64,000 nucleotides of DNA from Nitrospirota bacterium (GCA_963796125.1 CAWCKM010000018.1:1951-65950), one strand, 5' to 3'; positions 1-56,894 are shown, numbered from the stretch's first letter. Notes: generated from the sequence alone by a model not told the origin. Program-made: numbers and translations.

Positions 1-176
1 TTACCTAAAGAGTAAACCACTCATGAAGAATATAATCGCTATATCAATTTACATGTGTGATGTTGTATTGCAAGAGAAGATTTTAAAGACACTATGCAGG
101 AAGAAGTGGACGAGGGTTTTGGAAGCTGGTCGACGTTGATGTTTCTATGTGTACTTAATTAAACCCTTCTGAATAG

Positions 177-530: not shown

Positions 531-3500
531 TCATCTCTCCACTACCTCTGATTCCACCTCCATCTCCTTACCATCCCTCATAAAAATGATACTGACTATA
601 TTGCCTGGTTTTAATGATTTAAGAACATCGGAAAGGTCTTTCAAGTTGTGAATGGCATCAGAGTTTATCCGGATGATTACATCACCTTCCCTCAATCCGC
701 TTTTCTCTGCAGGCGATCCAGGCATAACACCAGAAAGTCTGCACCCCTTTCCACTATAAGCAAAGTCAGGAATAATGCCAATACTGACTTTTCTCTCCTT
801 CTTTGAAGAAGACTCAGGTTGCTTTTCATAAATTATTGTAGGAGTTAAAGGTTCTTCTCGATTTGCAAGATATTCAATCATTTCCTTTGCTACGGTAGCA
901 ACTTTCAAGAGGCCCTGAGAATCTATCTTGTCTGCAGTGTCAGTTGGACGATGGTAATCAAGATTGGGACCGCTAAAAAGCTGTATTGCAGGGACACCTA
1001 TTTCTTTAAAACTGATGTTGTCACTTGAATCAAGGCCTTCAGGTACAGCCTCTGTTTCAACCCCTGTATCAGATGCGGCTCCTCTGAAGATATGCAGCCA
1101 TTCTTTTGCAGAACCTGCACCAAGAACAAGCAATTTTTTCTTTCCAAGGCGTCCCACTGTATCAAGGTTGATCATGCCTATACACTTTTTTGCAGGAAAT
1201 TGCTTTTCATTGGCTACATAATATTTTGAACCCTTTCTTCCTGCTTCTTCTCCGGTGAATGCCACAAAGACTAAAGTTCGGTCAGGCTTCAATTCCTTGC
1301 CAAGCACCCTTGCGAGTTCTATGAGTACTGCCACGCCGCTTGCATTATCATCAGCACCGGGATGGACCTTGCCCTTGTTCTCTTCTCTTCCATCTGGCCA
1401 TCCCGTGCCGATATGGTCATAATGTGCGCCGACCACTACACTCTGGTCAGAGTTTTCAGGCCTTCTCCCCGGTATCACCCCTATTACATTCTTCATCGTT
1501 ATATTCAGTTCAGGGTCTTTCCATTCCTGGAAAAAGCTTCCTTCAGTATCGCCGACTGGTGTGAGTCCTGCTTCCTGAAATTTCCCTGCAATGAACTCAG
1601 CAGCATGCTCAAGTTCCCCGGTACCCAACCCTCTCCCTTTAAGCTCATCACTTGAAAGAAATTTGATTGTCTCCATCATTCTTTCTTCTGAGAAAACAGT
1701 TGGAAGTATCGTCAGGGGTTCAGATCGATTCAGGGTACCCATTTCTCTGTATACTACTTTTCCATCCTTATCTGGTAAAATCGCAGTCATCGGTGAATGG
1801 AGTACCGGCCATCTACCCTTTATAATATTTACAGGCTCATCACCTTCGAATACAAGATAACTGTATTTATGATAATGGGGGAGTTTTCTGCCGAGACCAG
1901 GAAGGGCTTCAGCCAAATCAGAGGCAATAAACAGAATGGCCATGTCTTTGTTTCCTGGATTTTTCATGCTGAATACCACAGTATGCTTTTCTTTAGAGAT
2001 TTTATTCTTATTAATTTTCATAGAACTCTGGTCTATAGGCACATCATACTGAGATAAAATTGCCAGCGTTTCTTTCAGGAAACGGTTTTCCCATCCCAGA
2101 ACGGTAACAGCACAGTCTGAAGGAATTCTTTCGACCTCCTTGTCAAATTTCACCTCTGCTGTATCCGGACCTGAATTACTTAGCACCCTCGCGAACTCTT
2201 GATACGCCTTCAGCATTATCCCTTCTGCCACTGATGGAAGCACTATCAGCATCCTTTTTGCACCTAATGCCTGTGTCAGTGCAGGTGGGATCTCTTCCCT
2301 GTCAAGTCTGCGGAACAGATCAAACTCAGGGTCAACATCAATTCTCAAAGGTTTTGAAGGCAGATGAATTGTAAGTTCAAGGTGCTTTTCATTCATGACA
2401 GCTTTAGTTTGATAAGCCTGTTCCTTCCCTTCCATAGTCACCGCCACAGGAATTTTCAGATGATATGCCTCCTCTGACTGCACTTGCTCAATACTGGCCG
2501 TAAGAATATACTCATCTCCTTCCATTTTCGATCTGACATCAGATAACTTCAATTGCGGCGCACCTTGACGCGTTATCCATTGATCGGAAAAAACCTTCAA
2601 ATCTTTTCCTGAAACTTTTTCAAAACTCTTTCTGAGATCATTGAAAGAAGCAAACTGAAACTTCTTTTCCCTATAGAAATCCCGAAGTCCATCTATGAAA
2701 ACTTTGTCGGCAAGCTCCTGACGGAGCATGTGGAAAAACATAAGGGATTTACCATATCCTACTGCCTCAGAAGGAGAGCTATGGCGTGACCGGAATTCTG
2801 TGAGGGGAAAATCTTTTCCTGTTGTAACATAGTCAGCATACTTCTGGAGAGTCTCCTGGCGGTATTCCTTTGCATTTCCCTGCTGTTCCTTGATAAGGTG
2901 ATCGGATAAATATGCTGTGAGACCTTCAGACCAGTTTCCGGAACTGTAATCAGGATAAACACTGTTTCCCCACCAGTTATGGAGGATCTCATGAGGATAG
3001 GAAGAGTTGATAATGAAAGGAAAGCGGATAATCTTTGGCCCAAGGAGTGTAAAGGAAGGCATTCCTAATCCTGTCTCCCAGAAATTCTCCACAAGCGCAA
3101 ACTTCTTATAAGGATATTGTCCGATGAGTTTTTCATACATGGTGATATACTGCGCAGTTGCGTCAAGATATCTGTCAGCCAGTTCTTTCTCTGGTGAACG
3201 AAGGAATACCATGGCCTGTATATTCCCGGTAGATCGCATGTATTCAGTAAACTTTCCCGCTACAAGGTATATCTCATCCTGGTTTTCTGTTGATACCCAT
3301 CGCACTTGCATATTGTCTTCCCTGTAGTCATGGATTGTACGTTCTCCTTGACTGACTGCATCCCATCCCGAGGGAAGTTCCACATCAAGGTTAAAAGTCA
3401 CCATATGACCTTCAATCTTTGGATACCAGAGAGAATTTCCAGAAAGATATACTCCTTCCTTCGAAATGATGCCGGGTGTCATACGAAAACCCCGCGCCTG

Positions 3501-3863
3501 CTCGCTTCCATAAGGTTCTATGGAGTGATGAATCGTTCCGCTATACTTTATTTCAAATGTTTTCAGTCCGAAAGGATTTTTTACCGTGAATGATTCAATG
3601 GGAAATCCCCCTGCTGGCCCTCTTTCACGGGTAAGAATAATGCCGGGAGTCGTTGACGATGGCTCAAGTCCGGCATGAAGTGAAAAGCTGAGCACATCAG
3701 GAGAATTCCCGGGCACCGTTATCAAGTCCTCAGCAACAAGCCGCCCCTCCTCCGGATAGAGCTTTATTGATAATTCATGATGGATTACAGGTTTTTCTGC
3801 CGCTTTCAGAGGGACCGGGAAAGTTATAAGGATTATAAAAATGATAAAGAATATACGGTTCAT
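531..3863 (-). CDS. secreted multidomain peptidase: M1 (gluzincin) domain + M28 aminopeptidase domain + C-terminal PDZ
   Basis: 1110-aa ORF with an N-terminal signal-like hydrophobic segment. HEILHNWWGN...WSEGLTAY gives the HEXXH-X18-E motif. M28 metal-ligand blocks are present: GAHYDH, GADDNASG, FTGEEAG, NLDTVG, DYHRPTD. A PDZ-like GVMPGSPAEKSGLREGDVII lies at the C-terminus. Confidence 0.85.
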   Translation of the reverse strand: MNRIFFIIFIILITFPVPLKAAEKPVIHHELSIKLYPEEGRLVAEDLITVPGNSPDVLSFSLHAGLEPSSTTPGIILTRERGPAGGFPIESFTVKNPFGLKTFEIKYSGTIHHSIEPYGSEQARGFRMTPGIISKEGVYLSGNSLWYPKIEGHMVTFNLDVELPSGWDAVSQGERTIHDYREDNMQVRWVSTENQDEIYLVAGKFTEYMRSTGNIQAMVFLRSPEKELADRYLDATAQYITMYEKLIGQYPYKKFALVENFWETGLGMPSFTLLGPKIIRFPFIINSSYPHEILHNWWGNSVYPDYSSGNWSEGLTAYLSDHLIKEQQGNAKEYRQETLQKYADYVTTGKDFPLTEFRSRHSSPSEAVGYGKSLMFFHMLRQELADKVFIDGLRDFYREKKFQFASFNDLRKSFEKVSGKDLKVFSDQWITRQGAPQLKLSDVRSKMEGDEYILTASIEQVQSEEAYHLKIPVAVTMEGKEQAYQTKAVMNEKHLELTIHLPSKPLRIDVDPEFDLFRRLDREEIPPALTQALGAKRMLIVLPSVAEGIMLKAYQEFARVLSNSGPDTAEVKFDKEVERIPSDCAVTVLGWENRFLKETLAILSQYDVPIDQSSMKINKNKISKEKHTVVFSMKNPGNKDMAILFIASDLAEALPGLGRKLPHYHKYSYLVFEGDEPVNIIKGRWPVLHSPMTAILPDKDGKVVYREMGTLNRSEPLTILPTVFSEERMMETIKFLSSDELKGRGLGTGELEHAAEFIAGKFQEAGLTPVGDTEGSFFQEWKDPELNITMKNVIGVIPGRRPENSDQSVVVGAHYDHIGTGWPDGREENKGKVHPGADDNASGVAVLIELARVLGKELKPDRTLVFVAFTGEEAGRKGSKYYVANEKQFPAKKCIGMINLDTVGRLGKKKLLVLGAGSAKEWLHIFRGAASDTGVETEAVPEGLDSSDNISFKEIGVPAIQLFSGPNLDYHRPTDTADKIDSQGLLKVATVAKEMIEYLANREEPLTPTIIYEKQPESSSKKERKVSIGIIPDFAYSGKGCRLSGVMPGSPAEKSGLREGDVIIRINSDAIHNLKDLSDVLKSLKPGNIVSIIFMRDGKEMEVESEVVER

Positions 3864-3970
3864 AATTAATTAGTGATAATTTTCCGTAAATCCACGATAT
3901 ATTTCATACTCTTTCGTTAGTATCAATATTATCATGAAAAATGAACTGCTTACAAAAATGATTAATTTTC

Positions 3971-3999
3971 TTGACATATTCATTTTTAAGTGATAATTT
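3971..3999 (+). promoter_or_regulatory. putative sigma70-type promoter for the perR-rubrerythrin operon
   Basis: TTGACA (3971-3976), a 17-nt spacer, then TAATTT (3994-3999) with TG one nt upstream (extended -10). AGTGATAATT occurs twice (about 3871 and about 3989), resembling Fur/PerR-box half sites. Confidence 0.35.
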
Positions 4000-4023
4000 A
4001 ATTTAAATAATAATGATTCTAAA

Positions 4024-4464
4024 TTGTGTGGTGTCATGAAAAGATACAGGGACATAGGGTTGAAACTTACACCTCAACGGTTGGCAATACTGGATTACCT
4101 CGAAGGCAACAGAGAGCATCCCTCGGCAGAGGATATTTATCATGCTGTTTCAAAAAAGTTTCCTACCATGTCTTTCTCAACTGTATATAACACACTCGAC
4201 GCTCTAAAAAAGAAGGGAAATGTTCTTGAGCTTACAATCGATGCCAGTAAAAAACGGTTTGACCCGAACACTGCACCACATCACCATCTGATATGCATCG
4301 AATGCAAACGGATTGCAGACATTATGAATGTGTATGAACTCTCTTTGCCTGATGATGAAAAAACAAATTTCAGAGTAATCGGCAATCACATAGCATTTTA
4401 TGGCATCTGCCAGACGTGCGGAAAGAAAAAACCTCATTTAAAAAGGAGGGGGAAAAGCAAATGA
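4024..4464 (+). CDS. Fur-family transcriptional regulator (PerR-like)
   Basis: LTPQRLAILDYL...HPSAEDIY is a winged-helix motif. HHHLICIECKR and CQTCGKK give two CxxC pairs (structural Zn site). The likely true start is the ATG at 4036. Context: upstream of rubredoxin and rubrerythrin. Confidence 0.8.
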   Translation: MCGVMKRYRDIGLKLTPQRLAILDYLEGNREHPSAEDIYHAVSKKFPTMSFSTVYNTLDALKKKGNVLELTIDASKKRFDPNTAPHHHLICIECKRIADIMNVYELSLPDDEKTNFRVIGNHIAFYGICQTCGKKKPHLKRRGKSK

Positions 4465-4643
4465 GCGACCATGATTTTACATACAGTGTGAAAACTCCAT
4501 ATGGCATATTCGATATGCCGCTACGCAACCCCATAACATGTCCGATATGTGGATTTGAAATACAAATATGGACAGAAGACGAAGAAACGATCTGTTTCAT
4601 CTGCGGTTTTAAATTGTTCAAAAAAGAAACAACAATTCACTAA
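4461..4643 (+). CDS. small zinc-ribbon protein (60 aa)
   Basis: ATG at 4461 preceded by the RBS AAAGGAGGGGG. Carries CPICGF...CFICGF (CxxC x2). It is in frame with track ORF 4416..4643. Confidence 0.5.
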   Translation: MSDHDFTYSVKTPYGIFDMPLRNPITCPICGFEIQIWTEDEETICFICGFKLFKKETTIH

Positions 4644-31535: not shown

Positions 31536-32700
31536 ATGCTGAGAACGTTCAAAGTAGAGAGACTCCATGCAAGCCTTATCCCTGAATCTACTCTGTTTAA
31601 GGTACTAAAATACCTTGATAGAGAAAAGATAGAAACACCCTTCCTTCTTATTGACAGTGACACAGTCCGGGAAAAAGTATCCCTCATTGGACAGCATATT
31701 AAGGACTCAAAGGTATTTTATGCTGTGAAGGCAAACCCTGACAGAAAGATCCTCAGATTCCTGAACGATCTTAACCTGGGTTTTGAAATATCCTCTGAGG
31801 GAGAACTGGAAATACTTGCGTCCCTCGGTGTAGGGCCCGAAAGGATTATATCAAGCAACCCTGTAAAATCTCTCAAGTTTTTGCGTCTGGCTTCCTCCTA
31901 CGGAATCAATTATTTTTCATATGATTCTGAAGACGAGATAGAAAAACTCTCAAACTATGCTCCTCACTGCAATGTGTATGTAAGGCTTTCCGTACCGAAC
32001 GAAGGCAGCGAGTGGCCCCTGAGCAAAAAGTTCGGCGTAGAACTCGATGAGGCTGCAGCTCTTCTGTCTGCTGCAAAAGAAAAAGGACTCAATCCGGTAG
32101 GAATTACTTTTCATGTTGGCTCTCAGTGCACAAATATTTACAACTGGCATATTGCCCTTGACAAGGCAAGGGCTTTGTGGGGTAAAGCCGAGAAGAATGG
32201 TATAAAACTGACCCTTCTTAATATCGGCGGCGGTTATCCGATAAATTACACAAAACATGTGATCAGTATCGATGCAATCGAGAAACAGGTAAACAACCTT
32301 ATTTATGACTATATTCCCTGAAGACGTTGAAATACATATCGAACCAGGCAGAGCAGTGGTTGGAGATGCCGGCGTATTGGTTACAACAGTAATTGGAAAA
32401 GCCTCCAGATCGGATGAAGACTGGCTTTATATAGACGTAGGCGTTTTTAACGGTCTGATGGAGAGCGTCGGTGGCATAACATACAGCTACATTGTAGAAA
32501 GCTATAAACATGCAAGGTCTAAAAAGAGATGGACACTGGCAGGTCCGAGCTGTGACAGCTTCGATGTGATAGATAAAAATGTAGCTCTCCCGGAACCGAA
32601 CATTGGAAATCTGATTCTCATATTATCAAGTGGTGCCTATACTATATCCTATGCTTCGGAATTCAATGGCTTTTCAATACCAAAAACTATACTGATATAA
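31536..32700 (+). CDS. type III PLP-dependent decarboxylase (Orn/DAP/Arg / carboxynorspermidine decarboxylase family), one frame break
   Basis: FYAVKANPD (PLP lysine), HVGSQ, GGGYP, EPGRAVVGDAG. The break is near 32300. Sits next to two speE genes. Confidence 0.8.
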
Positions 32701-33555: not shown

Positions 33556-34405
33556 GAAATTGTCAATTCCAAGCAACAAAAATAACTGGTTCATTGACAA
33601 AGACAGCAGACACAGATGGATATATCACAGGATAAAAAAGCATGTTTTATCAGTTAAGACAAGGTTCCAACAGGTAGAATTCATTGATACTTATGAGCTT
33701 GGACGTCTTGTTGTTCTCGACAACAAAATACAGTCTGCTGAAGCAGATGAGTTTATCTACCATGAAACCCTTGTACATCCTGCTATGATCGCACACCCGG
33801 ACCCGAAGATTGTTCTGATTCTCGGCGGAGGTGAGGGAGCAACTCTCAGAGAGGTTCTGAGACATGGAACAGTTGAAAAAGTCGTCATGGTAGATATTGA
33901 TGAAGAGTTTGTAAGCTTATGCAAAAAACATCTCAGGAACTGGCACCATGGTTCTTTCAACGACAAGCGGGTCGAATTAATTTTCGCCGATGCAAAGGAA
34001 TACATCAGTAACAGCACGCCATTCTTTGATGTTATCATCGCCGACATAAGTGATCCTTTTGAAAAAGGGCCGGCTCAGGAACTATATACCATGAAATTCT
34101 ACTCGGATATAAAAAAGGCTCTCAAGACCACCGGTATCTTTGTGACTCATGTAACAGGTGTTTTCTATACTTCAGGCAGATATCGCTATATGGATATTTT
34201 AAAAACGCTCAATGATATTTTTCCTCTCACACATTTTTATTATGAATATATTCCTAGTTATAGCTCTCTGTGGGGATTTGCCGCTTGCTCTCAAAAATAC
34301 AGCCCCCGAAAGATTTCTCCTGATACGGTATATAAGAGGTTAAAAAAGAGGAATCTCGATTCCCTCTCCTACTATGATAAAGAAACACATACAAAACTTT
34401 TCTAA
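33545..34405 (+). CDS. second spermidine-synthase-family aminopropyltransferase paralogue
   Basis: FQQVEFIDT..LGRLVVLDNKIQSAEADEFIYHETLVH, GGGEGATLREVLRH and ADISDP. Confidence 0.85.
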   Translation: MHGRKLSIPSNKNNWFIDKDSRHRWIYHRIKKHVLSVKTRFQQVEFIDTYELGRLVVLDNKIQSAEADEFIYHETLVHPAMIAHPDPKIVLILGGGEGATLREVLRHGTVEKVVMVDIDEEFVSLCKKHLRNWHHGSFNDKRVELIFADAKEYISNSTPFFDVIIADISDPFEKGPAQELYTMKFYSDIKKALKTTGIFVTHVTGVFYTSGRYRYMDILKTLNDIFPLTHFYYEYIPSYSSLWGFAACSQKYSPRKISPDTVYKRLKKRNLDSLSYYDKETHTKLF

Positions 34406-34628: not shown

Positions 34629-34685
34629 AACCAGTTCGTACTGAGCTTTGCATTCCTTTGATATATTCAGTCGAGTTTCATTGTT
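34629..34685. other. weak attC-like imperfect palindrome
   Basis: AAC-CAGTT-CGTACTG...(22-nt loop)...CAGTCG-AGTTTCATT-GTT followed by AAAT. The AACAATGA-type arm is on the opposite strand relative to the sites at 37304 and 39155. Confidence 0.3.
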
Positions 34686-34843
34686 AAATAACAGGATATT
34701 TACTGTTCAGAAGAAATCAAGGCATTGGCTGGAAACGTTATGTGAGAGGAAATTTGGAAAATAGAATTAAATAATGTAGGAAGTGTCCCTTTGACCTATC
34801 CCTTCGCTTGAGTAACAGTTTAGTACATTTGTCGTCTGATGTC

Positions 34844-36469
34844 TCAGCTTGAATTGCAGTAAAGAGCGGCTTGTGCTTTAGCGGTGTCGCAAGTCAGGAG
34901 AGTTTGCAGAAATTCTCTTGGATGCCGACCCTGTCGCATGGCGGTAAGCAGAAGACTGGGCAAGATGCTGTGTGTCCTTAATCCACTTTCAGAGCGTGTT
35001 CCGAACATGATTTTACGAAAGATCACAAGAAAACGGATTGATTGTTCTGCCTGATTGTTTGTTGGCTGCACACCGGGATGTCGAAGGAAAGTGAACAAAT
35101 GCTTTTGATCCTTTCCGATAAGTGAAGCTCTTAAAGTTTCAGCAGGATTGTAACTGAGCTTGCAGGCACAAAGCTTTTTAAGATCCGAAACGAATTGTTT
35201 TTCGATAAGAGACGCTTGATTCCATTGAAGGGTACCGGAGAGAAGTTCCTGTCCTACCGCGCAAGCCTCTGAGAAAAAAGTAGCGATTTTATCACAAAAG
35301 GCTTCTGCCTTTTTATCACGGGCTGCATCCTCTATGAGCAGAAGCTCCCGGGTAATTTCTTTGGCTTTAGTCATGAGATGGCCCAAACATGACTGCCGCG
35401 CTTTCGCATTGGCGCCGTTATATGCGGCATAACGATCGGCAACCAGAACCCCGCCGAAATCTGATCCGAGGATGGATTGTGCCACTTCCGTTGACCGATG
35501 CCGGTCAATCTGGAAGAACGCCAGATCGGTATTGCCCGCATACCATGCAAAATGGCCTATGCCGTCATTTCGCCATGAAGTTTCATCTGCATGAATGACA
35601 GCGGAAGCCTTGATCTTCTCTCGCAAATCTTCATAAATCGCCGCACCCTTTACCGCTGCTTGTCGGTCAAACCCCACAGCAGAGGCTGGCACAAATTGCA
35701 GGCCGAATAAATCCCTGAAAACCTCCTGGACTTTTCTATATGTCATGCCCATTCGATACCGCAAATAGATAGCAGCAGACTTCGCAACCGGTCCGATAGG
35801 GGCATTGAGAAGCTCATCTTCTGCCGCTTGAACAACAGGCCGGTTACAATGACCGCAAAATGCCTCACGATGCAGGTATCGGGTAACAAAGGGGCGGGGC
35901 TGAAGGACAATATCTTCCTGAAGATGTTCCTTAACACCCTTAATCGGCGTGAGATTGTGGGATTGGCAATGGGGACAAATCCTCGGGGCGGGTACTTCCA
36001 CGGTTTGGTCCACATGTATGGGTTTGTATCTAAACCATCCCGAATGGCCAACCGGAGCGCCACGCCTCTTCTTCCCCCCATCTACTGGTGTTGAGGCATT
36101 CTCTGCATCCCTGCCGTTTTCATCAGTATCTTTCTTTTTGTTTGCCTTAAATTGCCTCCGATGTAAAGCAGTATTCTTAGCCTTCAATTCCGCATTTTCC
36201 TTCTCCAGTGCCTGGATTCGTTTCAGTGCAGTATTCAACTCATCGCCCATTGTATCTATGATCCTCAGATGTTCTTGGTACGTTTCACCGGCACGTCGAT
36301 ACTCACCCAAAACCCACGTCGTGGACAGCCAATCCAAATAAGGACAGTTATGCTCATAAGGACAGGTAAAGTCAGGCGGTGGATAAGAGGGGCGAGGCAT
36401 ACTCCTTATTCGTTCTCCAGGTTTAGAATCTCCCAGTTGACCTTGGAGAGTTTCTGCATGAGTAGCCAC
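34844..36469 (-). CDS. IS66-family transposase (TnpC-like)
   Basis: Leucine-zipper region (LKRIQALEKENAELKAKNTAL), zinc-finger CPHCQS, and DDE-region blocks HADETSWR and ADRYAAYN. The likely true start is the ATG at 36400 (MPRPSY...), preceded by AAGGAG. Confidence 0.85.
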   Translation of the reverse strand: MATHAETLQGQLGDSKPGERIRSMPRPSYPPPDFTCPYEHNCPYLDWLSTTWVLGEYRRAGETYQEHLRIIDTMGDELNTALKRIQALEKENAELKAKNTALHRRQFKANKKKDTDENGRDAENASTPVDGGKKRRGAPVGHSGWFRYKPIHVDQTVEVPAPRICPHCQSHNLTPIKGVKEHLQEDIVLQPRPFVTRYLHREAFCGHCNRPVVQAAEDELLNAPIGPVAKSAAIYLRYRMGMTYRKVQEVFRDLFGLQFVPASAVGFDRQAAVKGAAIYEDLREKIKASAVIHADETSWRNDGIGHFAWYAGNTDLAFFQIDRHRSTEVAQSILGSDFGGVLVADRYAAYNGANAKARQSCLGHLMTKAKEITRELLLIEDAARDKKAEAFCDKIATFFSEACAVGQELLSGTLQWNQASLIEKQFVSDLKKLCACKLSYNPAETLRASLIGKDQKHLFTFLRHPGVQPTNNQAEQSIRFLVIFRKIMFGTRSESGLRTHSILPSLLLTAMRQGRHPREFLQTLLTCDTAKAQAALYCNSS

Positions 36470-36579
36470 ATTTTACTGTACCGTCTGGCCATTTCCTGCG
36501 CTTTATTTACTATGCCTTTTCGCACATATAGAGATTCGGTTTTCCCCTTCACCTTTGTCGTAAGACCATAGCCGGTCAT
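36406..36579 (-). CDS. small IS-internal accessory ORF (57 aa from the ATG; frame open to 36684)
   Basis: MTGYGLTTKVKGKTESLYVRKGIVNKAQEMARRYSKMWLLMQKLSKVNWEILNLENE. Its stop lies 5 nt upstream of the transposase ATG. It does not resemble the canonical IS66 TnpA/TnpB as I remember them. Confidence 0.4.
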   Translation of the reverse strand: MTGYGLTTKVKGKTESLYVRKGIVNKAQEMARRYSKMWLLMQKLSKVNWEILNLENE

Positions 36580-36797
36580 GGCAGGGGACTTGGCGATTGT
36601 ACCGATAAGGAAAAAATCGAGGCTCGCTGTGATTTCTTCCTTAAGTACAGCTCGACGCTTTTTAAGGATGTCTATTTTTTGTATGTTATCTCCTATAAAG
36701 AGTATTTATACTCTTTATATAATATCAATAAATCGCCTGCAAGTCAACACTTTTGTGGATGTCTGGTAGATGTCAGGCGAAAAAAGTTACGGAAGGA

Positions 36798-37145
36798 CTA
36801 AACTGTTACAAAAAGATGTCTTACAAAAGGCTTTTTATCAACCAAGACTCTTCTTCCCTGCAAGATCCGCCCTGCAAGACTGAGCGGTGCATTGTTAAGA
36901 ATCACGAGGTCTATTTCATCAGTTCCGAGTATATCTGCAATTCTACCAAACATCTCAAGATAATCCGGTTTCTTCATGTCCTTCACATACACCGCCAGAT
37001 CGACATCGCTCAGGGGATTTGGCCTCGCCTTGACCATTCCGCCAAAGAGGTACGCAAAGATAACATTAGAGTCACGGAGAAAAAAGTCACTCAGCAAACT
37101 CATTTTTTGATGGATATTTTCTGGAACTTTCTTAAATCTAATCAT
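36798..37145 (-). CDS. MNT-type nucleotidyltransferase (antitoxin-like), 3' end supplied by the IS66 inverted repeat
   Basis: The FAYLFGGMVKARPNPLSDVDLAVYV motif (G-x-...-D-x-D). The last three sense codons and the stop (GTA ACA GTT TAG) are the IS terminal repeat. Confidence 0.75.
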   Translation of the reverse strand: MIRFKKVPENIHQKMSLLSDFFLRDSNVIFAYLFGGMVKARPNPLSDVDLAVYVKDMKKPDYLEMFGRIADILGTDEIDLVILNNAPLSLAGRILQGRRVLVDKKPFVRHLFVTV

Positions 37146-37303
37146 GATTAAAACAATACCACAAAAAAGCCAGAAATGTAATTTTCTTCCGTTAACTTCT
37201 CTATCAAATGTGCAGAGCAGATGATATTGAAAAGAGTGAGACTAACACCTACAAGGTGTAAAAAATAGACAGTGAAGAAAATTAGCGATTATGAAAAGAA
37301 ATG

Positions 37304-37343
37304 AACAATGAGTTCAGCGGGTTCCCCGCTTGAACGATTGGTT
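37304..37343. other. attC-like recombination-site candidate
   Basis: AACAATGAGTTCAGCGGG-ttc-CCCGCTTGAACGATTGGTT. AAC/GTT termini, an unpaired spacer, a CAGCGGG/CCCGCT(T)G stem and a bulged base. 39/40 identical to 39155-39194. Confidence 0.6.
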
Positions 37344-37409
37344 AGCGGCGATCATCCTTTGTCCAATGTCAAGGGCTGACCGCTATTTCCATTCTGATAA
37401 TGCTTGCGA

Positions 37410-39108
37410 TTAAAGATCACGAAAAGCCTCAATAATTGTTTCCAGGCTTTCGTCGCACACGGAACATAGATGTTCAAAATGCTTACGAAAGCTACCATAA
37501 TCTTGTAATGCTTGCTTTCTCACTATTTCTGCTTCGCTTCCAGAAGCATGGCCTTTCAATATGGAGCGTAAGTTATGGATTTCATGGAAGGGTGACATGA
37601 GTTGGTGCGCATGTTCAGCCTCAAAGCCCACAGCAATGAGACATTCTTCAGTAAGTTTTAGAGCTCTTAACTTTATGTCAGGATTTCTGCCAAGCTCTTT
37701 TGCTCTCTTGCGCAACCATTTTTCATCTAAACCCTCAACCACGAGTTGATCGAGATTCAATATTTCCTCCGCCCATTCATCACGAGAAGAGGTATATGGA
37801 TAGTGGACTGTCTTAGGCGCATCTTCGTCCCTTAGAGTCCACCAGCCGACTTTTGCGCGATGTAGCTTGTCAAGCTTATTCTTTAGGCTATAAAGTGCGT
37901 CGTATCCTTCATAAAATTGGCCATCAAAGTCAGTGGTAATTGCTCTTTCAGAAAGTGGCGCTTTGGGCTTTTCATTATATTGTTTCCAATGAAGCTGTTC
38001 TTCGTAAGGAAGATGACTCAAATATATTAGATAGGTATGGACTTGACCTGCTGCATTGACATCGAACGTTTTTAAATGCCATGCGCCACGGCAACCAACT
38101 GATCGACTTTCTAAATGGTATTTTGCCCTATCGCTCTTGTATTTTAACAAGACTTCGGGCTTAAAAAATGCGGGGTTATCTCGAAAGGAAGATCTGACTT
38201 AGTAAAATAATTAGATAACCATGCAGGGTCACATGATATTTCAGCAATCTTTTTATTTTTCCAATCATATGCAATAAACGTTGCGTACTGCTTTGCCTCT
38301 TTGGATTCAGGCTTACCCCACATATTATTTATTATTTTATCCTTTGGAATGCTGATTTTCTTGACCTGAAATCCTCTTGAGTAGCTCCCATAACTCTCGG
38401 AGACTACCAAGCTTCCAAAAATGTTATTCTTACCATCAAATTGTATCGGAGCATTTCGAGAACCCCAGCCGGAAAAACTACCTGATTTATATCGTGTGAA
38501 ATCAAACATACGAACTAATAACATTTTACTTACACTGGTGTACTCTCCAAAGATGTCTTTCTTAATTGTAATAACTGTGCCCGTTTCATTATTCGGCAGC
38601 CTATTTATCTCTATGATTTTTACGATGTCTTCAAAATCGCCAAATCTGTCAAGTCTACACCAAGCACTACGTTCGGACATGAAGTGAATCCCTAATACAT
38701 GAGATATTTTCTGTTCCAACTCAAAGTACAGCTTCTTAGATTCAACCCCTTCAAAAGAGCGACCAAATAATATCGGCTCCCCCTTACTCAGGGTTTTACT
38801 TCCAGCATGAGCAAGGGGTCCTTCAATCCAAGCTTCATCTGAAGAGCATGTTATCCCCCAAGTGGAAAATGGATTATGACTCCAGCCTTGAAGATCATCG
38901 ACGGTTGAGTCATCAATCGCAACCTCCGGTATCAGAACAGCATGAATAAAAATGTGTCGTAAGGATGCATAGATAATAATGTTTTCATCCTCTATTTCTT
39001 TTTCAAGAAAAGGTAGCACATCCTCCTGTCTAACCCAGCTGTGAGGGCGTCTTCCTGTGCTGGTTCTTTGTCAAGCGATAAAATTATTTTGAAGTCGTAT
39101 AGGTTCAT
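37410..39108 (-). CDS. large orphan cassette protein (about 565 aa if two frame breaks are repaired) with an R-x5-H (HEPN-like) C-terminal motif
   Basis: Track ORFs 38144..39019 and 37410..38150 overlap by 7 nt (FLSPKSC* / MLKYKSDRAKY). A further N-terminal piece (MNLYDFKIILSLDKEPAQEDALTAGLDRR) starts at the ATG at 39108 in a third frame. The C-terminus contains FHEIHNLRSILKGHASG. Confidence 0.55.
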
Positions 39109-39154
39109 CACTCATTCAATGTTTCCGCAAATCTTCACACACGGCACACCGATT

Positions 39155-39194
39155 AACAATGAGTTAAGCGGGTTCCCCGCTTGAACGATTGGTT
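39155..39194. other. attC-like recombination-site candidate
   Basis: AACAATGAGTTAAGCGGG-ttc-CCCGCTTGAACGATTGGTT followed by GAAA. Confidence 0.6.
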
Positions 39195-39223
39195 GAAAGC
39201 TCATTCTCCCATTCCCAGTCACT

Positions 39224-39878
39224 TTAAGTTGGCAACGTCCCCAACAGACCCGTCCCGAAGTATTTACTCGTTCTGTTCCTCGACCACAATGCGACGAGGT
39301 TCACGTAGTCAATAAAGGTTAGTTCATCGGGGATTAATCGGCTTTGGCTGCATAACCTGCCAAATTCCTTCTTGAACTTTTTGAAACGTTGGTAGATGAT
39401 GCTTCCACTGGGAATTGTCTTTCGTTTGGACGAAGTTTGTAGCCAGTCTCTTATTTCCGTGACAAGTAATTGATGATTGTTCTTGTGTGTGCGAATATCC
39501 ATTCCTGATATATCAGACAACATCTTTTGGTACCTATATGGATAGCGATCGAGAACTAAACAAACCTTTCTGTTCTGTATTTCTTTGCCAAACCGTTTAG
39601 CACCGAAGAATAAGCCCAGTTCAAATGGCATATTAAATCGAGGTAATTTGCTTTTGGAATCAAGTTCAGTCCTGGAAATATCATGTATTCCGTATTTGCA
39701 TGTTGAGATTCTTTACTTCATTAATCTTTTCCAAGCGAAACTGGCTTGCATCGTTGGTCTCCTTGGAGCAACGTGGAACAAAGCCGGAATCTAACACAAC
39801 AAAAATAGCAGCATCAAATAAAGATTTATAACCTTCGTCGAACGGACAGTTGATAAATACTTGATCGTCGTATCTCAT
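39224..39878 (-). CDS. TIR- / nucleoside 2-deoxyribosyltransferase-like protein (one frame break)
   Basis: Track ORFs 39681..39878 (MRYDDQVFINCPFDEGYKSLFDAAIFVVLDSGFVPRC) and 39224..39631 (MPFELGLFFGAKRFG...VCLVLDR..YRYQKMLSDISGMDI). The alternating beta-strand/helix pattern with a conserved Glu after a strand resembles TIR/NDT flavodoxin-like folds. Its start ATG overlaps the upstream stop (ATGA at 39875-39878). Confidence 0.5.
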
Positions 39879-40522
39879 TTTTTGCGCGTTGTCATAGCTG
39901 ATTTAGATAATATGTCAATCAGATTCTTCGTTGAACTTGCAGATTTCTGCATGTCGGATAATGACTTTAGCAAGGTTGAAGGTAGCTTGCACGCCTGTTG
40001 GGTCTTCCGCATTTCTTCAAGAAGTGAACCCATCTTAGATGAGGTTTTCTGCGTTTCAGCCAATGTCTTTAGTAAGGATTCTGGCGGCTTGCATGCCTCT
40101 TGAGCCTTCCGCATTTCTTCAAGAAGTGCACCCGCCTTAGATGAGGCTTTCTGTGCCATCTGCATTTGTTGAATTATTGTATTCGTCGGCTGTAATAAAT
40201 CCTTAGTTGCACTTATGGAAGCAAGTGTTTTATCAATATTTGACGCCTCTTTCTGGATTTCAGTAAATGTCTTTAGTAAGGATTCTGGCGGCTTGTACGC
40301 CTCTTGAGCCTTCCGCATTTCTTCAAGAAGTGTGCCCGCCTTAGATGAGGCTTTCTGCGTTTCAGCCAATGTCTTTAGTAAGGATTTTGGCGGCTTGTAT
40401 GTCTCTTGAGCCTTCCGCATTTCTTCAAGAAGTGTGCCCGCCTTAGATGAGGCTTTCTGCGTTTCAGCCAATGTCTTTAGTAAGGATTCTGGCGGCTTGC
40501 ATGCTTCTTGATTTTTGCGCAC
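39875..40522 (-). CDS. tandem 34-aa helical-repeat protein
   Basis: Units of KPPESLLKTLAETQKASSKAGTLLEEMRKAQEA(C/Y). A probable N-terminal extension runs to the ATG at 40602 (MNRTKSMIKQLVEARKDNRS) through one frame change near 40540. Confidence 0.65.
   Translation of the reverse strand: MRKNQEACKPPESLLKTLAETQKASSKAGTLLEEMRKAQETYKPPKSLLKTLAETQKASSKAGTLLEEMRKAQEAYKPPESLLKTFTEIQKEASNIDKTLASISATKDLLQPTNTIIQQMQMAQKASSKAGALLEEMRKAQEACKPPESLLKTLAETQKTSSKMGSLLEEMRKTQQACKLPSTLLKSLSDMQKSASSTKNLIDILSKSAMTTRKK
39963..40520. repeat. 102-bp tandem repeat array (about 5.5 units) inside the CDS
   Basis: The unit register recurs at 39963, 40065, (40167, divergent), 40269, 40371 and 40473. Units at 40269, 40371 and 40473 differ by only a few bases. 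Confidence 0.9.
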
Positions 40523-40598
40523 TTCTTCAAGTAAGGCTTCTACGAACGATTATCTTTACGTGCTTCAACAAGTTGTTTTATCATAGACTTTGTTCTGT

Positions 40599-40712
40599 TC
40601 ATTGTTGATAGGACTTCCGGACTTTTGGAGGCGGCAAAAGATCTGATAATTCAGCGAGAGAAAAAAGCCCCTTTTTGGGATGATACTTAATAGTTCGCTT
40701 TTTCTCACTCAT
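40599..40712 (-). CDS. 37-aa basic ORF at the head of the cassette
   Basis: MSEKKRTIKYHPKKGLFSLAELSDLLPPPKVRKSYQQ. Its TGA overlaps the next ATG (ATGA at 40599-40602). It is below the ORF-track size cutoff. Confidence 0.35.
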   Translation of the reverse strand: MSEKKRTIKYHPKKGLFSLAELSDLLPPPKVRKSYQQ

Positions 40713-40843
40713 GTGATAATCTCCTATCTGCGTTACTATTTCTGCTTACTAACAGCATTAGTATCCCAATTTTACCACGTATGTTGCCGAATAGACGCTT
40801 AAGTGATATCGTTTTACCATCAAAATAATTCATTAGTGCGTAC

Positions 40844-40895
40844 AACGGCCTAAGCTCAGCGGCGGCTAACAGCCGTCCGCTGGAGTTGGCTAGTT
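40844..40895. other. attC-like recombination-site candidate
   Basis: AACGGCCTAAGCTCAGCGGCGG-ctaaca-GCCGTCCGCTGGAGTTGGCTAGTT. Same AAC...CAGCGG / CCGCTG...GTT layout with bulges. It starts 5 nt beyond the stop of the gene at 40901. Confidence 0.5.
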
Positions 40896-40900
40896 CGGCT

Positions 40901-41699
40901 TTAGATTATCTTATTAAGATCAACATCAAGCCCAGCGGCTCGTAGTTCTCGCCCGAGAAGAAGTCGCCATCCGCCAGACTTATCTAAGGGAACAAATACG
41001 ACACCGTCATAATCCGAAGGAATTTCCACTCCTTCTTCATATAAAGCGCACACACGATCCCGTCCGATTCGCCCCAGGAAGAAACTCGAGCTCAAGGATA
41101 ACGTTCTGCCTTGCACGTGGTTTATATGCATCGGGTAAATCGTCGGTTTTCCCTCCCCGGTCGTCAGCCGTCAAGATGATAACGGAATACCCCACGTCTG
41201 AGTAATCGATGAATTTCTCAATTATTGTTTTTCCTCTGTTTGGCTGTTCGTGCAGTATTATAGGATCAAGCCCAATCTGTCTTATCAGGCGTGCAACAGA
41301 TTCACGTGCAGCTTCATTATGCCCATGTACTATAAAAACTTTATTGGATGATGCAGGATTCTTTTCCTCTCGCTGTCCAAGATTTTCTCCTGTATCCGGC
41401 CAATACTCTTGCACTTCGTCAATCATAGATTGAAGAAGCGCATCCGCACTTGCTTTTCCATTAACAAAAGCTTGCGCGAAAGCAGGTTCAGGATTCATCA
41501 TATTGTACGACCCAGGAGTAAAACTGACGCCTCGGAAATCGCGAATATGACGAGTGTCTTTCCCAAAAAGATGTTCGAGCGAGACGTCTGTATCTCGCCG
41601 CCATTTCTTAAAAGCGGGGTCTTTGGTTGCACTTGCAGATAGTCCCCGGAGCACTTCCAAACGCTCCTTTAGCTTCTCAATTATCTTTTGTTTTTCCAT
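40901..41699 (-). CDS. COG4271-type TIR-like nucleotide-binding protein with a unique N-terminal domain (one frame break)
   Basis: VFIVHGHNEAARESVARLIRQIGLDPIILHEQPNRGKTIIEKFIDYSDVGYSVIILTADD...RARQNVILELEF in ORF 41037..41699. It continues as FFLGRIGRDRVCALYEEGVEIPSDYDGVVFVPLD in ORF 40901..41131. Confidence 0.65.
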
Positions 41700-41731
41700 T
41701 TATCTTCATTTGGTGCCGGACATTCGAAATA

Positions 41732-41785
41732 AACGGTTTTTGGAGCGGCTTTAGCCGCGGGAAAAATCCGCTCGATTGAGTTGTT
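41732..41785. other. attC-like recombination-site candidate (weaker stem)
   Basis: AACGGTTTTTGGAGCGG...CCGCTCGATTGAGTTGTT followed by AAAT (GTTAAAT). It shares the GAGCGG/CCGCTC box and the CGATTG..GTT right end with the sites at 37304 and 39155. Confidence 0.4.
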
Positions 41786-41804
41786 AAATAGTAATTTTTT
41801 CTAT

Positions 41805-41895
41805 ATTAACCCCGGCAGGGAATTGGCAGCCTAAGCCGCCAATTCCTTCGACGCCTCGCTTTCACATATGTGAAGCCAGGGAGTTGCCTTAGTTA
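41805..41895. other. compound palindromic structure downstream of the IS30-disrupted gene
   Basis: GGAATTGGCAGcctaagCCGCCAATTCC plus the perfect palindrome TTCACATATGTGAA. It could be a long attC variant or a terminator. Confidence 0.3.
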
Positions 41896-42022
41896 TGTGC
41901 GACAGGATTAGGTTGTTTTTGAGCACCTTGTAGTCTTTGTCCAGTTTTTTTCATCACACCTTTCAAATAATTCATTTCTCCATTCCAATAAGCTAAGATC
42001 GGTAGATTTTTTAATTCGCCAG

Positions 42023-43072
42023 TTCAACAATGAAGTGCAACACTTGGGAGAGCAGAAAAGGAGATGCTATCCTAAGTGTCTATGCCAAAGAACTACAAAC
42101 ATATTACCATGGACGAAAGAGAACTCATAGCTAAAATGAACTGGGAGGGTAAGGGGCTGAACGAGATCGCCAGTGCCCTTGCCCGGGACAAAGGAACCAT
42201 CTCACGGGAACTCAAACGAAACGCCTCTTCTGAATACAGATGCTACACCCCGTGTCGAGCGCAATACCGAGCCGATGAACGGAGGAAAACGGCAAGTAGG
42301 CGTCCCCGGCTTAAGAACGAGACAGTCCGTCAGTATGTACTGGAGAAACTTGCCATAGGATGGTCTCCCGAACTGACAGCCGGAAGACTTCCATTGGAGC
42401 ATCCTGGTTTTTCAATCAGCTATGAGGCGATCTACCAGTATATCTATCACCCAAAGACAGCAGAGCGTGAGGAACTGATCGCTTCTCTGCGCCGTTGTCA
42501 TCGGAAGCGCATGCACAAGAGCATAGGTCGAAAAGTACGTAAAACCAAGATTCCCAATCGGGTGCCGATTGATGTCAGGCCGAAATCAGTTGAATCCAGA
42601 CATTACTATGGTCATTGGGAAGGCGATAGTCTCATATCCCGGAAAAGCCTTGCTGCCTTAAACAGTCTCACAGAGAGAAAAAGCAGGCTGCTATTGCTTA
42701 CCAAACTGAAGCGCAAGGGTGCAGAGGAAACAAAGGATGCCATCATCAGACGGTTATATGCACTCCCTGCCTCAATGAGAAGGACACTTACCCTCGATAA
42801 CGGGACCGAGAACGCCCAGCATGAAGAGATTACTTCAGAGATTGGTCTGAAGTGCTATTTTGCCCATCCCTATGCCTCATGGCAGCGAGGAACTAATGAG
42901 CACATTAATGGTCTTGTTCGATGGTATTTGCCAAAGGGTACGGATTTCAGTAAGATTTCAGAGGAGCAGATTGCTCAGATAGAATCATTGATCAACAATC
43001 GCCCCAGAAAGTGTCTGGGGTTTAAAACACCACTTGAAGTCGCTTCTTCTTGTGTTGCACTTCGAGATTGAA
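42023..43072 (+). mobile_element. IS30-family insertion sequence (1050 bp)
   Basis: Terminal inverted repeats are TTCAACAATGAAGTGCAACAC (42023-) and GTGTTGCACTTCGAGATTGAA (-43072); 17 of 21 positions match. One transposase ORF lies inside. Confidence 0.85.
42076..43071 (+). CDS. IS30-family transposase
   Basis: HTH N-terminus (GLNEIASALARDKGTISRELKRN) and DDE blocks HWEGDSL, TLDNGTENAQH, YFAHPYASWQRGTNEHINGLVRWYLPKG. Confidence 0.9.
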   Translation: MSMPKNYKHITMDERELIAKMNWEGKGLNEIASALARDKGTISRELKRNASSEYRCYTPCRAQYRADERRKTASRRPRLKNETVRQYVLEKLAIGWSPELTAGRLPLEHPGFSISYEAIYQYIYHPKTAEREELIASLRRCHRKRMHKSIGRKVRKTKIPNRVPIDVRPKSVESRHYYGHWEGDSLISRKSLAALNSLTERKSRLLLLTKLKRKGAEETKDAIIRRLYALPASMRRTLTLDNGTENAQHEEITSEIGLKCYFAHPYASWQRGTNEHINGLVRWYLPKGTDFSKISEEQIAQIESLINNRPRKCLGFKTPLEVASSCVALRD

Positions 43073-43920
43073 TGTGGGATTTCTATTCCAGAAACAAATC
43101 TTTTTCTTTTTTTAATTATACCAAAACATCTGGAATCTCCAATTCTATATAATCCCATTAGTTGTGGCAAGCCTCCACAATAATCGTCTTTGATATTGAA
43201 TAGTGTGTCGCAAAAGCAGTGAAAAACTGCCCGGCTAGTTTTTTTGTTGCTACTTTCCCAATATGTTTTGAATTTACTAAGAAATTCATTTTTACCAGAT
43301 CCTAAAACAAAAAGCTTATTTGAATGATCGCTGAAATTTGCCTTTTTCCCTTTCCATCCACTCTCCTTATTCCATTCAATAATATGGCAAAAGAAATTTT
43401 TGTCATCTCTTGATGCATGAACAATCGAAAAAGGAGAGCTTAAAATATTTTTAGGATAATCATTAAAAAGATTAATTATTCTTTCTTTTATTATTTCGAA
43501 TTTTTCTTTACAAGTTGCTTTTTTACCGAATAGTAATCCCTTATCACCAATATCAATTATTTGTGGTAAAACCAATGTTGGAAATAACACGTCTCCGCAA
43601 TAGCCGATAATATCTGGCGATTTGTTAAACCCAAAAATCTTTCGTCCGTAATCCCACTTGTTGTCTTTCCCCCAGGTGATTCTACTATCGCTTGCAATGT
43701 ATATTGACGCTGGAGCTCTTGAATCGACCCCCAACCATGTGATTAGTAATGACATATTAAGGTAATAGGGTCAGGCTTTCTTTTATGCAATTAACTTTTC
43801 CTTCACGCGGCTGCTATTCGGGGACACCATATTTATCTCTTTTCTTTTAGAGCCTGGTTTCAGCGTAGTGCATCGAGAAGGGTGACATCAAGAATTAAGT
43901 ATGGTGTCCCGAGAACATCT

Positions 43921-56601: not shown

Positions 56602-56894
56602 TTATAGGAGAGGGTCGACAACTTCATTGCGCATTTCGAGGCTACATGTGGGTTCGCCTTTGCTACGAGCCCGCAGGTTCGCTCAGTTCCCTTTGGAACC
56701 TTTGTCAGGGAACTTAATGCTTCAGGTTACCCTTTGCACCTCCCTCAAGCTACGTGGGTGAACTACCAAATTCCCACAGTCGGACTTCAACCGACAAGTC
56801 ATATGTTTTACACGGCATGCCCTACAACTGAGTATAAGTAAGAACAGAGGAAAGCTGAAGGTTAACATTCGAACTACGCATCACATCCCATATA

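Follow-up and report, generated by a model that had tools for sequence, protein, structure and literature searches.

In a 64,000-nucleotide stretch of a Nitrospirota bacterium assembly (GCA_963796125.1, CAWCKM010000018.1:1951-65950), the interval from 37.3 to 40.9 kb very probably represents a small array of integron cassettes without a neighboring integrase, that is, a cluster of attC sites lacking an integron integrase (CALIN). The whole 64-kb stretch, which derives from a Thermodesulfovibrionales-like chromosome, is referred to here as the window, and its coordinates are counted from its first letter. Judged from sequence, three sites in this interval, designated A, B, and C, are genuine integron attC sites, and the array that they form is a known kind of element (CALIN), not a new kind. 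An earlier note, written from the DNA sequence alone, had proposed five attC-type sites in a CALIN-like arrangement. The arrangement is supported by the ranking of a covariance model built from class 1 attC sites and by cassette-boundary polymorphism in related loci; sites A, B, and C stand, both by their folds and as the top three matches of that model, and the two remaining candidates (41732-41785 and 34629-34685) do not.

Structure and polarity of the attC sites

On the recombinogenic bottom strand, attC sites carry an R' box of the form RYYYAAC and an R'' box of the form GTTRRRY, with an unpaired spacer of 5 to 6 nt in each arm and extrahelical bases opposite the AAC arm, namely, a G at position 16 and a T at positions 23-24 (PMC5027507). 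Sites A, B, and C (the last spanning 40844-40895 from AAC to GTT) each lie within a gap separating minus-strand open reading frames (ORFs), and each forms an imperfect hairpin that begins with AAC and ends with GTT (DNA fold z scores of -2.4 to -3.5). Site A occupies 37300-37347 on the plus strand, or 48 nt from 7-mer to 7-mer. Its left arm consists of R' AATGAAC (AAC at 37304-37306), the spacer AATGA, L' GTTCAGCGGG, and the loop TTC, and its right arm consists of L'' CCCGCTTGAAC, the spacer GATTG, and R'' GTTAGCG, with a predicted cleavage point at 37305|37306. Site B, at 39151-39198 on the plus strand, is likewise 48 nt long between its 7-mers. Here, R' GATTAAC (AAC at 39155-39157), AATGA, L' GTTAAGCGGG, and the loop TTC are followed by L'' CCCGCTT[G]AAC (extrahelical bases in square brackets), GATTG, and R'' GTTGAAA, and the extrahelical G, at 39183, falls exactly at position 16 counted from the 3' end. 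Site C is longer (40840-40899 on the plus strand; 60 nt) and comprises R' GTACAAC, the spacer GGCCTAAG, L' CTCAGCGGCGGC, and a loop on the left, followed by GCCG[T]CCGCT[G]GAG, the spacer TTGGCTA, and R'' GTTCGGC on the right. It has both extrahelical bases, T at 40876 and G at 40882, set 5 bp apart, and its inner boxes (CTCAGCGG / [T]CCGCT[G]GAG) are common to the 75-nt attCs of the array at L019, one of the related loci described below. The unpaired central spacers measure 5 and 5 nt in A and B and 8 and 7 nt in C, the latter being longer than typical. R'' conforms to GTTRRR in nearly all copies of the A/B family (e.g., GTTAGCG and GTTGAAA), with a fourth base that is usually A rather than Y, and in this family a 3-nt loop replaces the variable terminal structure.

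The earlier note had reported that 37304-37343 and 39155-39194 are identical at 39 of 40 positions, and this was borne out: a 28-nt core occurs in exactly two copies in the window, and shuffled sequences gave no chance matches (0). The same family can be aligned with attCs of known integrons. On the bottom strand, the aadA1 attC reads ATCTAAC GCTTGA GTTAAGCC ... GGCTT[G]AAC GAATT GTTAGAC, and the window family reads yTAAC AATGA GTTAAGCG GG-TTC-CC CGCTT[G]AAC GATTG GTTRRRA on the plus strand. Site B can be aligned position by position with the aadA1 and aac(6')-29a attCs over GTTAAGC...GCTT[G]AAC, the 5-nt spacer, and GTTAGA. More generally, the A/B family resembles the 60-nt "aadA-type" 59-base elements (aadA1, aadA2, and aac(6')-29a) in its L box (GTTAAGC / GCTT[G]AAC, with the G at position 16), in the 5-nt spacer preceding a GTTAGA-like R'', and in having its bottom-strand bulge opposite the AAC. 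It differs in being 48 rather than 60 nt long, in a stem that extends only 3 bp past the L box to a TTC loop, in lacking the T at position 23, and in residing on Nitrospirota chromosomes rather than in clinical mobile integrons. Site C, together with a site at 3688-3747 of L019, instead shares the geometry of the 57-nt ereA2 attC ([T]-5 nt-[G], 3 to 4 bp, a spacer, and GTTAGA), although its spacers of 8 and 7 nt exceed the usual 5 to 6 nt.

The location of the extrahelical G, at position 16 and across from the AAC, identifies the plus strand as the bottom strand. Cargo genes on the minus strand are therefore sense oriented, with each attC placed right after the stop codons, which lie 1 to 29 nt from R''. 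This polarity is the opposite of that tentatively suggested before, according to which the cargo would have been antisense to the cassettes. All three sites are on the plus strand with spacings of 1,851 and 1,689 bp, within the <4 kb used for CALIN clustering. Read along the top (minus) strand, the order is a TIR/PDC-S35 gene, attC C, a repeat protein and a 200-amino-acid (aa) ORF, attC B, two ORFs with a conserved tail, attC A, mntA, and an IS66-family element. Measured between cleavage points, the complete cassettes are 39157-40845 (C to B; minus strand; 1,689 bp) and 37306-39156 (B to A; minus strand; 1,851 bp).

The position of each hairpin just downstream of a sense-strand stop codon, and its GC-rich stem, would also be expected of a terminator or a 3' untranslated region stem-loop of the minus-strand genes, conserved for a function at the RNA level. 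We regard this explanation as very improbable, as no T-run follows the stems on the sense strand and a terminator scan of the minus strand flagged none of the three sites. A terminator would also leave unexplained the AAC/GTT ends, the fixed spacers, the strand-specific bulged G, and the homology break at the AAC that is described below.

Covariance models and recurrence in related loci

To rank candidate sites, we employed R2, a covariance model constructed from the bottom strands of 13 genuine class 1 attCs (aadA1, aadA2, aadA7, psp, qacL, cmlA1, estX, VIM-2, aacA4, ereA2, aac(6')-29a, dfrA5, and arr-3), which serves as a surrogate for the model used by IntegronFinder. Its members were taken from integron plasmids and the literature, the verified sequences coming from PMC2095811 and PMC5371416 in addition to class 1 integrons from plasmids. 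R2 was run without filters on the entire window, both strands included (128 kb searched), and returned four matches at an E value of ≤10. The best three are B (24.7 bits; E = 7e-4), C (19.9 bits; E = 0.011), and A, all on the plus strand; the fourth is a background match on the minus strand (8.2 bits; E = 9.7). On 48 kb of related housekeeping DNA, R2 gave nothing above 8.7 bits. A second model, R1, represents the A/B family and is too specific for testing C or the candidate at 41732-41785. In the window, R1 found only A (65.9 bits on the plus strand versus 10.4 on the minus strand) and B (73.9 versus 16.4). A strict, handwritten attC descriptor, which recognizes aadA7 and ereA2 solely on the bottom strand and misses the Vibrio cholerae repeats (VCRs), had just two matches in the window, B and C. 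Relaxed versions of the descriptor performed no better than on shuffled sequences, and we treat the descriptor as supporting evidence only, weakly significant on its own. Rfam, which has no attC family, returned only a group II intron at the gathering threshold.

The two other proposed sites fared poorly in the same analyses. The candidate at 41732-41785 has no R1 or R2 match on the plus strand and scores 6.0 bits on the minus strand, which is the wrong strand. Its fold contains a competing inner hairpin and no L-box bulge, as in a palindrome-containing spacer. The weaker fifth candidate, at 34629-34685, folds at shuffle level (z scores of -0.27 and -0.73) and received no R2 match at an E value of ≤10 in a search of 33.5-47.8 kb.

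Several observations weigh against assigning A, B, and C to integrons. Site A is matched weakly by R2 (11.6 bits on the plus strand; E = 1.4), and an A>C substitution adjoins its bulge, which is shifted and weakened. The E values of R2 come from a shortened calibration, and the two matches of the strict descriptor compare with 0.37 expected, a count of two being reached in 2 of 60 shuffles. Members of the A/B family possess a single extrahelical base, with no extrahelical T, and their 48 nt fall below the quoted attC length of 57 to 141 bp (PMC5027507), a reported range rather than a mechanistic requirement, within which the 60-nt site C falls. The R' boxes (AATGAAC, GATTAAC, and GTACAAC) match RYYY only loosely. 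Finally, neither the window nor any of the 27 related loci yielded an integrase or an attI.

These loci were gathered by scanning the core pattern GTTNAGCGGGNNNCCCGCTTGAAC against one genome per species and then against a metagenome collection. The genome scan yielded 9 loci, all from metagenome-assembled genomes of Nitrospirae or Thermodesulfovibrionales, and the metagenomes added 18. One doubtful match from the metagenomes (L016) was left out of the alignment, so that 26 of the 27 loci were kept. Across these copies, conservation of the 40-nt A/B element exceeds 90% within AAC...GGTT(RRR) and drops off abruptly beyond these limits, and the outer AAC/GTT is kept in 24 of 26; the copies at L002 and L005 have no R'' GTT. 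At each of the 11 copies with mapped ORFs (the 9 genome loci plus the 2 window copies), the ORFs on both sides are encoded on the strand opposite to that of the element, so that its orientation to transcription is constant, as expected of a cassette site and not of a repetitive extragenic palindromic (REP) element.

That A, B, and their relatives might be REP-like extragenic repeats, moved by RAYT/IS200-like Y1 transposases, is suggested by their form, a short imperfect palindrome in intergenic DNA, and by IS200-like "YHxxxRGN" ORFs located 0.03 to 1 kb from the element in L003, L005, and L007. However, such a gene is present in only 3 of the 27 loci and not in the window, and at L005 it occupies the position expected for cassette cargo. 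The copy number is low, with one strict match per 357-kb and per 187-kb contig, and the orientation to neighboring genes is fixed, as noted above. The element moreover scores on a model made purely of integron attCs and sits in canonical cassette arrays. We consider the REP explanation largely refuted and correspondingly give it very little credence.

The integron assignment of the three sites draws further support from the arrays in which the element is embedded. R2 detected same-strand arrays around it at L019 (11 sites, scoring up to 46.6 bits), L021 (6 sites), and L023 (4 sites), as well as smaller ones at L001 and L003 (3 sites each). At L019, every attC directly follows one top-strand ORF, and the 48-nt element is one member of the array; an attC from such an array reads CTCTAAC GCTTGA ACTCAGCGG...[T]CCGCT[G]GAGT GAAAT GTTAGGT. 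In addition to occurring in long canonical arrays, the element marks a cassette boundary. L023 and L025 carry the same cassette. Starting at the AAC, the two match without a single difference across the attC and 127 nt of cargo (100% identity), whereas on the other side, beyond the AAC, identity is 25%. The homology thus breaks exactly at the AAC/GTT core, the position at which the integrase would cut.

Such a sharp, one-sided homology break, together with the hairpin ends, might also be produced by another single-stranded DNA mobile element (IS200/IS605, IS91, or HUH type) whose cargo is bounded by subterminal hairpins, and mini-hairpin loops of the GCGAAGC type, a single-stranded DNA motif, adjoin the element in seven loci. 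We rate this as the most improbable of the alternatives, since neither a matching second end nor a consistently linked HUH transposase was found, and since tandem arrays of one ORF and one hairpin, with a sequence match to class 1 attCs, fit integron cassettes specifically. The mini-hairpins belong to a structure that window sites A and B do not have. In L014 (13850-13884), L023, L003, L004, L012, L013, and L021, the bottom strand carries, directly upstream (5') of the element, a perfect GC-rich hairpin (GTT-stem-loop-stem-AAC), its 3' end being the AAC of the 48-nt attC and its loops being the GCGAAGC-type mini-hairpins. In L014 and L023, the next attC follows only ∼70 nt beyond this hairpin, so that the cassette between is nearly empty.

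Base pairing of the attC hairpins could be assessed in an alignment of 41 sites. The L-box helix is 97.6% paired, with compensatory changes at seven of nine pairs, and the AAC/GTT pairs are invariant in 40 of the 41 sites. The alignment was fitted to the model, which favors pairing; the covariation score of 0.41 is accordingly to be read against slid controls that carry an equal bias (0.04 to 0.10), as well as against shuffles (0.12; 0 of 500 reach the observed score). A second, unrelated family of 48-nt attCs (CGTAACCCG-TTTA-CGGGTT[G]ACG) was observed on the minus strand of L003 (4949-4996) and L001 (5707-5754), and very short attCs therefore recur in Nitrospirota arrays.

Cargo genes and edges of the island

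The cassette that ends at attC C carries a TIR-domain protein of the CAP12/Pycsar-effector type (PDC-S35; 40901-41699, minus strand). The gene is read as two overlapping frames, matches Pfam PF10137 (3e-23 and 1e-5) and the PADLOC model PDC-S35 (3e-58), and has its stop codon 1 nt from R''. The 1,689-bp cassette contains a frameshifted protein of 102-nt tandem repeats (39875-40715, minus strand) and a 200-aa ORF in two frames (39224-39878, minus strand), for neither of which Pfam returned a match. The repeat protein includes a 215-aa ORF (39944-40561) with five or six 102-nt (34-aa) tandem repeats (…KPPESLLKTLAETQKASSKAGTLLEEMRKAQE…) and no match to a known family. For the 200-aa ORF, NCBIfam gave a faint Cap12 hint (E = 0.003), far below the cutoff. 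Thus, one of the two TIR-like proteins proposed earlier could be confirmed (by PF10137 and PDC-S35), and the second, with no Pfam or PADLOC match, could not. The two ORFs of the 1,851-bp cassette (38144-39019 and 37410-38150, minus strand) have no family match in Pfam, PADLOC, or NCBIfam, and no family match was obtained for a protein that had been singled out for an R-x5-H motif. Adjoining attC A is a short tail (…GQPLTLDKG*) that is common to L003, L007, L012, L015, L017, and L019.

Downstream of attC A lies a gene for an MntA-type nucleotidyltransferase antitoxin (36798-37145, minus strand), previously listed as an MNT and now confirmed as MntA/Polbeta (68 bits for NCBIfam MntA, for which the cutoff is 60; Pfam Polbeta, 1.6e-16). 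The IS66-family element truncates this gene at the 3' end, and the gene has no attC after it. A tblastn search of the window's cargo proteins against all related loci gave no matches; what the window and these loci share is the attC and its short adjoining tail, not genes. We also observed that the 25 to 40 nt just inside R'' are drawn from a few conserved modules that occur in cassettes with otherwise unrelated cargo. In the window, these lie at 37353-37385 and 39220-39240 (examples being GGTCAGCCCTTGACATTGGACAA and GGGACGGTGATGAATTAGTTGAC), and groups of related modules comprise L003, L007, L012, L015, L017, and L019; L006, L010, L020, L026, and L027; and L002 and L021. Many modules contain TTGACA ∼17 nt before the R'' core, and L003 and L020 are the only loci in which they share the frame of a long ORF.

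Two insertion sequences flank the array. An IS66-family insertion sequence (34812-36809, minus strand), bounded by the terminal inverted repeats GTAACAGTTTAGT and identified by its IS66 transposase in both Pfam and NCBIfam, lacks a target-site duplication and forms the low-coordinate edge of the island. Upstream of the array, an IS30-family insertion sequence with inverted repeats (42023-43072, plus strand) splits a 265-aa minus-strand ORF (43073-43755 plus 41908-42022). Both of the elements described in the earlier note are therefore present, and both lie outside the interval of supported sites (37304-40895), at its flanks, rather than within the array.

The chromosomal context points to a rearrangement at the IS66-family edge. 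Gene order is shared with the relatives L036-L039 (IMPDH, GuaA, DXS, TlyA, ODC, SpeE, SpeE2, and YceD-PlsX-FabH), and homologues of a window housekeeping gene come from Nitrospirota or Thermodesulfovibrionales, which assigns the window to this lineage. In the window, SpeE2 is the last gene of the shared order, which ends at 34405 beside the IS66-family element, and YceD, PlsX, and FabH are absent; the island therefore begins at a rearrangement breakpoint. In relatives retrieved through SpeE2 homologues, YceD-PlsX-FabH follow SpeE2, and no integron is found there.

Further features were observed outside the array. An inverted repeat of 21 nt (GGGACACCATATTTATCTCTT / AAGAATTAAGTATGGTGTCCC, 48 nt apart; 43821-43910), located between the ORF interrupted by the IS30-family element and a small pair of genes, does not resemble an attC. 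The match to group II intron domains D1-D4 lies at 56658-56797 on the minus strand of the window. L001 has an intron match (1-100, minus strand) and a reverse-transcriptase ORF (3405-4556, minus strand), located on the bottom strand inside the cassette array, an arrangement expected for group IIC-attC introns.

Mobility, known relatives, and significance

In agreement with the earlier note, no tyrosine recombinase was detected in the 64 kb. Searches of the window by tblastn with IntI1 and XerD returned nothing below an E value of 1.7 (the IntI1 query is 100% identical to thousands of real IntI1 genes), and no PF00589 domain was found in the Pfam-scanned ORFs flanking the array. With no intI in the window, the array does not qualify as a complete integron, which is defined by intI and by attI, a site that is not conserved, beside the array. 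With no integrase found in the window or in the 27 related loci, activity of the array is hypothetical. In the mechanism that we propose, each cassette comprises an attC preceded by one minus-strand gene or two, and the single-stranded plus strand of each attC would fold into a hairpin read by an integron integrase. This hairpin would combine a paired R box (5'-AAC ... GTT-3'), unpaired spacers of 5 to 8 nt per arm, an L box with an extrahelical G opposite the AAC (plus a T in C), and a short loop at its tip. If an IntI were provided in trans, it would cleave the AAC between the A and the C, recombination of two attCs would excise the 1,689-bp or 1,851-bp cassette as a circle, and the excised circle could reinsert at an attI. 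Continued recombination of these sites in the source genome would require an integrase elsewhere in the cell.

Alternatively, the sites may be genuine attCs by descent in an array that is now a dead fossil, its integrase lost, its cargo decayed, its surroundings rearranged by insertion sequences, and its cassettes immobile. We hold this to be a serious possibility, at somewhat less than even likelihood. Beyond the missing intI and the synteny break at 34405, it would account for the spread of several cargo ORFs over more than one frame, for the stem mutation and low score of site A, and for the copies at L002 and L005 that have lost the R'' GTT. The IS66-family element without target duplication and the truncated mntA suggest an adjacent deletion, and the array may be a stranded remnant, cut off by rearrangement mediated by insertion sequences. 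Sites B and C, however, are intact on every structural criterion, and about half of CALINs are found in replicons that encode an IntI (Cury et al., PMC4889954). The frameshifts, too, may be assembly errors, because a housekeeping gene is also split: compared with an intact orthologue of 387 aa, with which it shares 92% protein identity, the ornithine/DAP decarboxylase (ODC) gene (31536-32700) carries a 1-nt insertion, at about 32300, that breaks it into ORFs of 261 and 131 aa. For the cargo, assembly error is as likely as decay.

Like the CALINs of Cury et al. (PMC4889954), the array has at least two attCs <4 kb apart on one strand and no intI within 4 kb (or, here, within 64 kb), its cargo is mostly of unknown function, and insertion sequences adjoin it. 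It differs in having been called with the surrogate 13-attC model rather than with IntegronFinder's own. Sedentary chromosomal integrons, such as the Vibrio cholerae superintegron with its VCRs, share the tandem succession of one ORF and one attC, attC families typical of the lineage, and cargo of the toxin-antitoxin or defense type; unlike them, the window has three sites, no integrase, and mixed attCs (two of one family and one other). Cassette arrays are known reservoirs of defense genes, and CALINs and integrons are widespread; the array will therefore not surprise a specialist. Integrons have also already been reported in Nitrospirota (PMC9668308).

The new points are modest, namely, a 48-nt, single-bulge attC family across Nitrospirota and the conserved modules beside attCs. 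It is conceivable, though in our estimate unlikely, that the A/B family and the second 48-nt family constitute a lineage-specific minimal attC class, shorter than the quoted range and with a single extrahelical base, that would be recognized by a Nitrospirota integrase with relaxed structural demands, the modules inside R'' being working components of the cassettes, either as outward promoters or as scars of attC attachment to genes. The window further illustrates that a real integrase-less array can be recognized by reading the sequence alone, without tools. With its polarity settled, the cargo can be read as sense cassettes that carry a TIR-type defense gene and several unknowns, with mntA just past the last attC. 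Related metagenomic arrays allow cassette boundaries to be read directly, and the conserved 48-nt attC family could serve as a natural minimal substrate for defining the requirements of IntI.

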